Shown here in pieces: positions 19,741 through 20,983 of a stretch of DNA of 22,357 bases. Each line of letters begins with the position of its first letter. Positions within the stretch are counted from its first letter, which is position 1. Source of the stretch: a virus; UHGV virus genome UHGV-0078062; one strand, given 5' to 3'. The notes under the pieces were generated by a model. The model was not told the origin of the DNA. It worked only from the letters and a program-made list of their open reading frames with translations, and did not search any database. The position numbers and the translations under genes are program-made.

Positions 19741-20739
19741 TTATATTACTTTTCTAAGCAAAGGGATTTTGCTTAGAATTATTGATATGCAATATGACAT
19801 TAAAAAATAAATGATTGTTAGCAATGGTATCATGAAATATGCGTTTTCTTGATTATACCCGAGTCTAATTTCTCTAACAAAAAAGAAATGGACGAAGTAT
19901 ATACCAAATGAAACATTTGATATTGATGTAAATAAATTCATTAATCTTTTGCTAATTATTTTTGAGTATGACATGCATAATGTAAATGAAGAAATAACAC
20001 ATATTAATACAAGTGGAGATGTATTTTTAAAGAAAAACTGCTCAGGCCTGCCTGTTATTTCAGACCACCAACTAGATGCCATTGATGTTAACAGGCACGA
20101 CATAACAATAATCACCAATGGTATCACTGCATTGCATTTTTTTATTTTATCGTTATATCTCCTTATTATTGCCCCAATAAGAATATATATCCCATTTTCA
20201 GACACTAGTTTTACATCAAACCATGTTACCTTCATTATCGTTTTATCAACTACAGGGACAATGGAATTTGAGTAAAAAAGCATGCTTACAATAATTAAAA
20301 TGTAATATGTTGGTATGTGTTTTAATGAGTTGCAAATTATTGGTAAAAACATATATATACAAATATATGCATACATAAACCAAAGGTGTACCTCACTTGG
20401 TTGAAATATAGAATTATATGATTTGTTGTTAATCTCTGTATTGTAGATATAATATACCACCCACCAAAATATGAATGGTATTATCAATCTCGACACTCCT
20501 TTTTTTAGGTGTGCTGTTGGGTTTATGTTTTTTTCATAAAAAAGGTATCCAGTGATAAGAAAAAAAAGACCTATACACTGCCTTGAAAAAGAACTGTATA
20601 AATTAACAATCCACCAATGATCTCCAAACTGCATAAAAAAAGCACCTGAAGAATGAAGTAAAACAACTAGAAATATAGCCATGGAGCGAGCTATATGCAC
20701 TTCATTTAACTCTATTCTATTTTGTCGAATATCAGACAT
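19741..20739 (-). CDS. oac: O-antigen acyltransferase (acyltransferase-3 family, Oac-like) integral membrane protein
   Basis: 332 aa with multiple TM helices; N-terminal acyltransferase-3 signature (ELNEVHIARSMAIFLVVLLHS); visibly AT-rich; sits between tailspike and integrase as in Sf6, whose Oac is 333 aa as recalled. Confidence 0.8.
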   Translation of the reverse strand: MSDIRQNRIELNEVHIARSMAIFLVVLLHSSGAFFMQFGDHWWIVNLYSSFSRQCIGLFFLITGYLFYEKNINPTAHLKKGVSRLIIPFIFWWVVYYIYNTEINNKSYNSIFQPSEVHLWFMYAYICIYMFLPIICNSLKHIPTYYILIIVSMLFYSNSIVPVVDKTIMKVTWFDVKLVSENGIYILIGAIIRRYNDKIKKCNAVIPLVIIVMSCLLTSMASSWWSEITGRPEQFFFKNTSPLVLICVISSFTLCMSYSKIISKRLMNLFTSISNVSFGIYFVHFFFVREIRLGYNQENAYFMIPLLTIIYFLMSYCISIILSKIPLLRKVI

Positions 20740-20983
20740 TACGTACCCACCACAATTTTATTTGTATGATTTATATGCTTTTAAATTTAAGATTATTTTG
20801 TCCTTTTTCTATCACGTAACCATGAGCGAGATGATACTTTAAAAAACAGTGCTACGAATTTATTCTATCATCCAAGTCTCAATCGATCGATGACTTGCTG
20901 TGGTTGATAAGACAAAACTGAGACAAACAAAGTTTTGCACTGGATTGCAAGGCTTTGTGTCATTCGATAGTTGTTAATGTCGC

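Follow-up and report, generated by a model that had tools for sequence, protein, structure and literature searches.

A rare acyltransferase-3 gene beside the tailspike gene of a P22-like Escherichia coli prophage, a candidate O-antigen modification cargo

The viral genome UHGV-0078062, a stretch of 22,357 nucleotides (nt) that is called here the window, comprises the late-gene half of a P22-like (Lederbergvirus-type) prophage of Escherichia coli, and near its right end lies the gene studied here, which encodes a membrane protein of the acyltransferase-3 (AT3) family. The virion genes of the window are 94-96% identical to those of phages Sf101, Kapi1, CUS-3, IME10 and Sf6. As listed in Table 1, the order at the right end is a tailspike gene on the plus strand, the open reading frame (ORF) 19741-20739 on the minus strand, a gap, and an IntS-type integrase gene, also on the minus strand. 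The contig UViG_3300045988_132863 of IMG/VR is 100% identical to the window across 16001-22357.

Table 1. Features at the right end of the window, with coordinates counted from its first letter
Feature	Coordinates	Strand	Remarks
P22-type tailspike gene	17494..19740	+	748 amino acids; Head_binding domain, E 5e-67; convergent with the acyltransferase gene, which it adjoins stop to stop
Divergent cassette	18700..20680	.	C-terminal ~340 tailspike codons and the acyltransferase gene without the first ~20; 50-68% identical in nt to strain 573
AT3-only acyltransferase gene	19741..20739	-	ATG start; 332 amino acids; 10 predicted transmembrane helices; guanine plus cytosine (GC) content 29.3%
Strong 11-bp hairpin	19752..19778	+	Just 3' of the tailspike stop, within the last 12 acyltransferase codons; terminator-like site
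Cargo-specific AT-rich leader	20740..20863	-	Conserved among AT3 alleles, absent from gtr-carrying phages
Extended -10-like element TGATAGAAT	20862..20870	-	Where homology with gtrABC-carrying prophages stops
Backbone spacer downstream of intS	20864..20983	-	Common to many IntS prophages whatever the cargo
IntS-type tyrosine integrase gene	20984..22177	-	Phage_integrase, Phage_int_M and Arm-DNA-bind_3 domains; 92-96% nt identity to the int genes of Sf6, HK620 and CUS-3
tRNA gene, 3' part, at the prophage/chromosome junction	22306..22357	-	Rfam tRNA, 32.7 bits, model positions 20-71; 5' end cut off

The protein encoded by ORF 19741-20739 matches the Pfam family PF01757 (Acyl_transf_3) over its full length (E 5e-34; score 118.2 bits, cut-off 31; profile positions 3-325 of 326 covered by residues 13-323) and also PHROG 3333, 'O-acetyltransferase' (E 1e-13), in agreement with an earlier reading of this DNA made from its letters alone (the sequence-only reading), which had named an AT3-family membrane protein at this position. 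An open frame of 332 codons at this base composition has a chance probability of around 1e-12. The GC content of the gene is 29%, against around 50% for the phage backbone, and for this reason we regard it as acquired cargo, as had been proposed. No second Pfam domain was found in the protein, which thus has an AT3-only architecture, without a fused periplasmic SGNH domain. This is the type of Oac, Lag-1 and WecH, the AT3-SGNH fusions being represented by OafA, OafB and OatA. NCBIfam holds no named family for it.

An AlphaFold model obtained with ten sequences (mean predicted local distance difference test, pLDDT, 82; predicted template-modelling score, pTM, 0.83) consists of ten long helices and nothing else. 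Searching the Protein Data Bank (PDB) by sequence gave no solved relative and no bacterial AT3 structure, and the fold search of the PDB with the model returned human HGSNAT as the sole meaningful match (probability 0.99, TM-score 0.46, borderline E value). HGSNAT is an acetyl-CoA-dependent transmembrane acetyltransferase, and it has been united with the AT3 proteins in one superfamily (PMC12423673). The catalytic motifs were located in an alignment that took in Sf6 Oac, Sf101 OacB, phiV10 Oac and distant relatives. Both residues of the R/K-X10-H motif of the first transmembrane helix (TM1), here R18 and H29, are invariant in it; the FFXISG motif of TM2 reads F59-F60-L-I-T63-G64 (FFLITG, with Thr replacing Ser), with F59 and G64 invariant; and the conserved TM6 glycine is G189, invariant or nearly so. 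In characterised AT3 acetyltransferases the R/K-X10-H pair (R14/H25 in OafA, where it is essential), the F and G of FFXISG and the TM6 glycine are invariant or essential (PMC7448272).

The gene was compared among four separately sampled copies, namely the window/L010, the chromosome of strain 22KM0354 (L001), an IMG/VR sequence (L011) and a Logan sequence (L007), and the protein is identical or nearly so in all of them. They differ at nine nucleotide positions, eight of the changes being synonymous and one non-synonymous; as roughly a quarter of random changes are expected to be synonymous, such a proportion has a chance probability of around 1e-4, supporting that the acyltransferase gene is under purifying selection. 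The window allele also has five homopolymers with lengths of 7-8 bases, including a T8 over the FF codons of FFLITG, with none or one such run in the sister alleles. They are probably a by-product of the 29% GC, and they could permit slippage-based on/off switching.

The relation between the acyltransferase gene and its neighbour became apparent in a sliding nt identity profile between the window and the prophage of strain 573, from which the edges of the cassette in Table 1 were taken. Identity is 98-100% from 17400 to around 18650, again 100% at 20768-20867, and mostly 90-100% through the integrase gene, with a dip to 84% and an 11-bp indel at 20868-20967. At the protein level, the two tailspikes agree at 50 of 50 residues per block up to residue ~400 and then at 24-38 of 50 (around 55%), and the two AT3 proteins share their first 19 residues, with an overall identity of 55%. 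The GC content falls stepwise across the cassette, from 41% to 36% and 29% (backbone 50%). By this profile, the C-terminal third of the tailspike gene and nearly the whole acyltransferase gene are one divergent block within near-identical phage DNA, and the conserved sequence that bounds it can in principle serve as recombination anchors. Receptor-reading and receptor-masking genes would in this way sit in one exchangeable unit, a pairing that a self-exclusion function predicts.

The gap between the acyltransferase start and the integrase stop (20740-20983) is exactly 244 bp, as the sequence-only reading had it, with 34% GC overall against around 50% for the backbone. Its description as AT-rich holds for 20740-20863 (28% GC) and not for 20864-20983 (40% GC), and the region is not the single unit that had been assumed, because its integrase-side half is a backbone spacer shared with gtrABC prophages: 20864-20983 can be aligned to the sequence between int and gtrA in HF4s and to that between intS and yfdG in the cryptic K-12 prophage CPS-53, and 281 E. 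coli genomes gave megablast matches beginning at 20864. An edge of the acquired module was therefore rightly expected in the gap, at around 20863/20864, but with respect to the sister allele of strain 573 the edges lie in the AT3 coding sequence (around codon 20, ~20680) and in the tailspike gene (~18700). The alignments with HF4s and K-12 retain TGATAGA and diverge directly after it, where the window reads TGATAGAAT. This element is a candidate promoter common to the conversion slot, downstream of which cargoes would be exchanged, and it would give the AT3 mRNA a leader of ~115 nt. From a second promoter-like site (TTAAAA-18-TAAAAT, 20784-20755), the mRNA would have practically no leader. Within the spacer, a hairpin at ~20922-20961 could end int transcription; it is weak, with a fold that is not significant (z -0.66).

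The cargo-side half of the gap is more conserved than the gene that it precedes, in such a way that it shows a single difference from the copy of 22KM0354 and remains identical to strain 573 over the stretch given above, while the coding sequence drops to 50-68%. No match to 20740-20863 was found in HF4s, K-12 CPS-53 or Sf6, and it was detected only upstream of AT3 alleles. It carries a Shine-Dalgarno-like element, GGTGGG, 6 nt 5' of the acyltransferase ATG. The predicted fold of the leader RNA is no better than that of shuffled sequences (z +0.1), and an Rfam search of 19400-22357 gave nothing in the leader, the only match being the tRNA fragment at the window edge. A Dam/OxyR phase-variation switch like that of P22 gtr was also considered, and it is unsupported because the region has only one GATC. 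This lone GATC (20885-20888) is placed 14-17 nt upstream of the TAGAAT -10 hexamer, inside CATCGATCGATT, a stretch that is conserved in the K-12 and HF4s spacers. A literature search for the promoter of K-12 yfdG/gtrA produced nothing usable.

Relatives of the protein are rare. Among 1.84 billion cluster representatives, 4226 relatives were found at E <= 1e-3 and only five at E <= 1e-30, and beyond its own clade the identity falls to 35% and then to 24-32%, so that by sequence similarity the protein belongs to a small, isolated AT3 clade. A scan with one genome per bacterial species yielded no relative, and the clade is thus not a core gene of any species. Only three of 5426 complete E. coli genomes carry any allele (strains 22KM0354, 573 and mip270_04). 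For five relatives the genomic context was readable, and all five are prophage genes, which either converge on a tail gene or stand at the start of gtrABC. In the blood isolate 22KM0354 (NZ_CP151071.1), the identical gene stands beside the same tailspike gene in a phage whose integration site adjoins ybhB/bioA. Strain 573 and an IMG/VR sequence (L012) have the 55% allele, which lies between the tailspike gene and intS at a tRNA-Arg site. Another allele (P0004) is flanked by an integrase gene on one side and by a P22-type tailspike gene, convergent with it, on the other, and a further one (P0006) converges on a 515-residue gene without Pfam match, with an integrase gene nearby. Finally, the allele P0002, of which strain mip270_04 holds a copy, is the first gene of a gtrA-gtrB-gtrC operon facing a tail gene. 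As gtrABC is the classic O-antigen glucosylation system, this linkage gives contextual support for an O-antigen substrate.

Two of these loci also show rearrangements. In 22KM0354, the block of tailspike gene, AT3 gene and upstream region continues into a remnant of intS, its last 86 bp (9370-9455, equivalent to window 20984-21069), beyond which lies the chromosomal DNA of ybhB/bioA. The conversion block has here been linked to a phage whose integration module is a different one, the junction falling within the 3' end of int. In mip270_04 (L018, NZ_CM132654.1 1-14580), the AT3-gtrABC block is found in a prophage remnant broken by the insertion sequences (IS) IS1, IS3 and ISSen4, and conversion genes may there have been retained after phage decay.

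The serogroups of the carriers were read from the wzx/wzy names in the NCBI annotation. Strain 22KM0354, the only complete genome with an identical AT3 protein and with a tailspike gene around 98% identical to that of the window, is O83, and its wzy is 99.9% identical to that of the O83:H1 strain NRG857C. The sister alleles are those of strains 573 and mip270_04, and both of these strains are O32. As O83 and O32 account for 35 and 9 of the 5426 complete genomes (44 together), finding all three carriers within them has a chance probability of around 5e-7, or around 7e-5 if both O32 strains are counted as one event. The two O32-linked AT3 alleles are 67% identical to each other and 53-55% identical to the O83-linked allele of the window. 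The O-antigen gene clusters of O32 (L015, 13245-19939) and O83 (L017, 21585-27913) are colinear, with six of seven proteins homologous at 31-56% (wzx 56%, wzy 43%, three glycosyltransferases around 55%, one hypothetical protein 31%) and the last glycosyltransferase unrelated, that is, in the same identity range as the AT3 and tailspike C-terminal alleles. The O32 and O83 O-antigens are probably related in structure; a literature search found no published statement of this relatedness. In genome CE0032f, which has an O32 wzy, the Prokaryotic Genome Annotation Pipeline (PGAP) labels this wzy as 'O83 family'.

A lytic Kagunavirus named after O83:H1 NRG857C has a tailspike 46% identical to that of the window over residues 66-761, and no solved homologue of the receptor-binding region was found beyond the N-terminal domains. 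The serogroups of the carriers, the colinearity of the O32 and O83 clusters, the matching divergence of the alleles and the Kagunavirus tailspike together single out the O83 O-antigen as the likeliest candidate both for the receptor of the tailspike and for the substrate of the enzyme. More generally, the genomic contexts of the readable relatives and the O-serogroups of the complete-genome carriers point to O-antigen modification.

Regarding the remaining features of the region, the longest tailspike ORF starts at 17446, 16 codons before the conserved start MSDITANVV at 17494. As the Pfam and PHROG matches begin at residue 17 of this long ORF and all annotated relatives begin at the conserved start with 748 residues, the true tailspike probably has 748 and not 764 residues. 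The hairpin overlapping the end of the acyltransferase gene has a fold of -17.1 kcal/mol (z -4.6; none of 200 shuffles as good) and is likely the terminator of the tailspike gene and the late operon. The last 52 bases of the window hold the 3' part of a tRNA gene, and the homology with Sf6 ends at the annotated attP core of Sf6, by which the window end is read as the prophage/chromosome junction; in strain 573, with its closely related prophage, a tRNA-Arg gene lies beside yfdC at the equivalent junction. Between the injection-protein and tailspike genes, a Mnt/Arc-like repressor gene (17112-17405, minus strand) has an in-frame stop at codon 43 (17277-17279), a codon that encodes Ser in the sequences L001, L002 and L007, whose otherwise near-identical protein has 97-99 residues. 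The ORF finder splits the gene into two 42-residue pieces that match the two halves of PHROG 795, and the window prophage may carry a defective immI-type regulator.

We consider it likely that this stand-alone AT3 conversion cargo acetylates the O83-type O-antigen and excludes sibling phages. The prophage would express an AT3 inner-membrane enzyme, probably from the conserved promoter region of the conversion slot downstream of int and through the AT-rich leader of ~115 nt. An acyl group, most likely acetyl from acetyl-CoA, would be taken up at the cytoplasmic face by the Arg-X10-His pair of TM1, pass through the ten-helix pore to the periplasmic side and be placed on a sugar of the O-antigen repeat. 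As acceptor, the O83-type O-antigen is the likely candidate, and the phage's own tailspike probably uses it as receptor too, in such a way that acetylation would stop incoming tailspikes of the same specificity from binding or cleaving it and would add a strain-specific antigenic factor. This follows the logic of Sf6 and phiV10, in which O-antigen acetylation leads to exclusion (PMC9558356).

Several observations weigh against this interpretation. The RXXR segment is degenerate in the window protein (K79-K80-G81-V-S-R84), with only the last Arg aligned, to R76 of Oac, in a loop whose alignment is uncertain; the sister alleles read KGVRKL and KGFINL at this position. In Oac, OafA and OafB the motif, which follows TM2/3 (R73/R75/R76 in Oac), is essential, and it is described as 'highly but not absolutely conserved'. 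A promoter upstream of the gene, as expected by the sequence-only reading, is plausible, but the promoter-like sites are at chance level, with 11 found against 10.9 expected in shuffled sequence. The serogroup association comes from three genomes, and the two O32 strains, with many identical proteins in common, may be relatives of each other; they nonetheless differ in the locus and in the AT3 allele. Receptor-binding regions related to that of the tailspike are also present in phages isolated on other hosts, such as an avian pathogenic E. coli (APEC) strain and Enterobacter. The O83 repeat unit reportedly lacks an O-acetyl group (Jann et al. 1994), the strain studied having probably lacked this rare prophage, and a literature search for O-acetylation of O83 gave nothing usable. 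Furthermore, the substrates of AT3 enzymes include many glycans, and acyl groups of other kinds can be transferred by them (PMC9558356).

One alternative is that another glycan is acylated, such as the enterobacterial common antigen (ECA), colanic acid, a K capsule, the lipopolysaccharide (LPS) core or peptidoglycan, and that the tailspike recognises that glycan or something unrelated, which we find unlikely. AT3-only proteins do modify ECA (WecH), poly-N-acetylglucosamine (PNAG), capsules and more (PMC9558356), and the receptor-binding region of the tailspike has no solved or annotated homologue. The same slot in CUS-3 holds a capsule-specific system with an endosialidase tailspike; this phage also carries NeuO. 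Against such a substrate speak the confinement of the carriers to O83 and O32, which are related serogroups, the sister allele that points in the same direction as the O-antigen glucosylation operon gtrABC, and a divergence of the AT3 alleles comparable to that between the O32 and O83 gene clusters. If, on the other hand, the O-antigen is indeed modified, the pay-off could be defence against other phages or evasion of immunity or serum, or the tailspike could even prefer the modified form. A modified receptor matters to many phages at the same time, the carrier strain 22KM0354 was isolated from blood, and some coliphages depend on O-acetylated O-antigen, according to the E. coli 4s work as cited in PMC10408124; yet the tight pairing of the AT3 alleles with those of the tailspike C-terminus is the prediction of a self-directed exclusion, for which Sf6 and phiV10 are precedents, and a different pay-off appears improbable to us.

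We give equally little credit to the idea that the cargo is silent or decaying, that is, intact by chance or through recent arrival, unexpressed in the lysogen (for instance by silencing of AT-rich DNA) and without phenotype. The low GC of the gene, the promoter-like matches no more frequent than by chance, the degenerate RXXR, the nonsense codon in the Mnt/Arc-like gene and the location of the mip270_04 relative in an IS-riddled remnant would all fit it. However, the excess of synonymous changes arises among copies in phages with different integration modules, the leader and first 20 codons are 100% conserved between alleles with 55% identity elsewhere, the catalytic motifs apart from RXXR are intact, and the protein is preserved in the four separately sampled sources.

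Acetylation of the O83-type O-antigen by the prophage, if true, would have consequences beyond this phage. O83 includes strains of adherent-invasive E. coli (AIEC) associated with Crohn's disease (LF82, NRG857C), a probiotic strain and blood isolates. A prophage-borne acetylase would make an O83 sub-variant that is invisible to genotypic O-typing by wzx/wzy, and this sub-variant could alter the susceptibility to phages, with relevance for phage therapy against AIEC, and the recognition by antibodies. The pairing of tailspike and modification alleles would illustrate, in a clean natural case, how temperate phages match the recognition of a receptor to its masking, and would offer a handle to predict both from sequence. 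A more ambitious proposal, possible although we stop short of calling it probable, is that the AT3 gene and the specificity third of the tailspike gene form a co-evolving and co-transferred pair of 'receptor-reader plus receptor-eraser' that is swapped among P22-like phages by recombination, with alleles tuned to O83 and O32. The anchors would be the conserved tailspike beta-helix on one side and the conserved AT3 leader with the first 20 codons on the other. In that case, around 3% of O83 strains (one of 35 complete genomes) would show an undescribed O-acetylated O83 variant, and the AT3 and tailspike alleles, taken jointly, could serve to infer from sequence the fine structure of the O-antigen and the host range of the phage.

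Among the known conversion systems compared, that of Sf6 has its tailspike (gene 14), oac (gene 15) and int (gene 16) genes in the same order and orientation as the window; that the gene is placed where Sf6 carries oac had been pointed out by the sequence-only reading. Sf6 Oac shares with the window protein the Pfam family, an AT3-only build of 332/333 residues, and the slot between the tailspike gene, on which it converges, and an IntS-type integrase gene (96% nt identity between both int genes). In contrast, the best BLASTP segment between Sf6 Oac and the window protein is 25% identical over 71 residues, with an E value of 0.2, Sf6 was not among the tblastn matches at E 1e-5, the upstream region of Sf6 oac is unrelated, and the rhamnose backbone of S. 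flexneri, the substrate of Sf6 Oac, cannot be that of the window enzyme. The label 'oac-like' is thus adequate in family and position but not in sequence, and orthology with Sf6 Oac was rejected in favour of a same-slot analogue.

The nearest characterised relative is instead Oac of phiV10, a Uetakevirus of E. coli O157:H7, with 27% identity over the full length (E 5e-28) and a similar size. Its gene also converges on a tail fibre gene, and the protein is annotated as acetylating the host O-antigen (O157), with immunity to superinfection as the outcome. It differs in the phage type, in a slot that adjoins lysis genes and not int, in the O157 host, and in a clear RXXR (KRANRL) where the window protein has KKGVSRL. 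The gtrABC operons of the IntS prophages HF4s, N7 and K-12 CPS-53 (yfdGHI) occupy the same slot directly downstream of intS, have in common with the window the 120-bp spacer up to TGATAGA, and presumably serve O-antigen modification likewise, but they do so through glucosylation by three proteins, and the cargo of the window through acylation by one. In Sf101, OacB is an AT3 cargo adjoining the tailspike gene of a P22-like phage with 96% identity to the window in the virion genes; unlike the window protein, it has 390 residues, it is only ~18% identical in the alignment, and the integrase type and arrangement are others.

Phage-borne AT3 O-antigen acetylases in this slot have been textbook knowledge since 1991. 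The gene of the window is a new and rare AT3 cargo, probably of the O-antigen-acetylase type, without a close characterised relative, the kind of cargo itself being ordinary. In the same way, the paired cassette and the restriction to two serogroups are not conceptually new and illustrate a known principle, with precedents in Sf6, P22, phiV10 and CUS-3.

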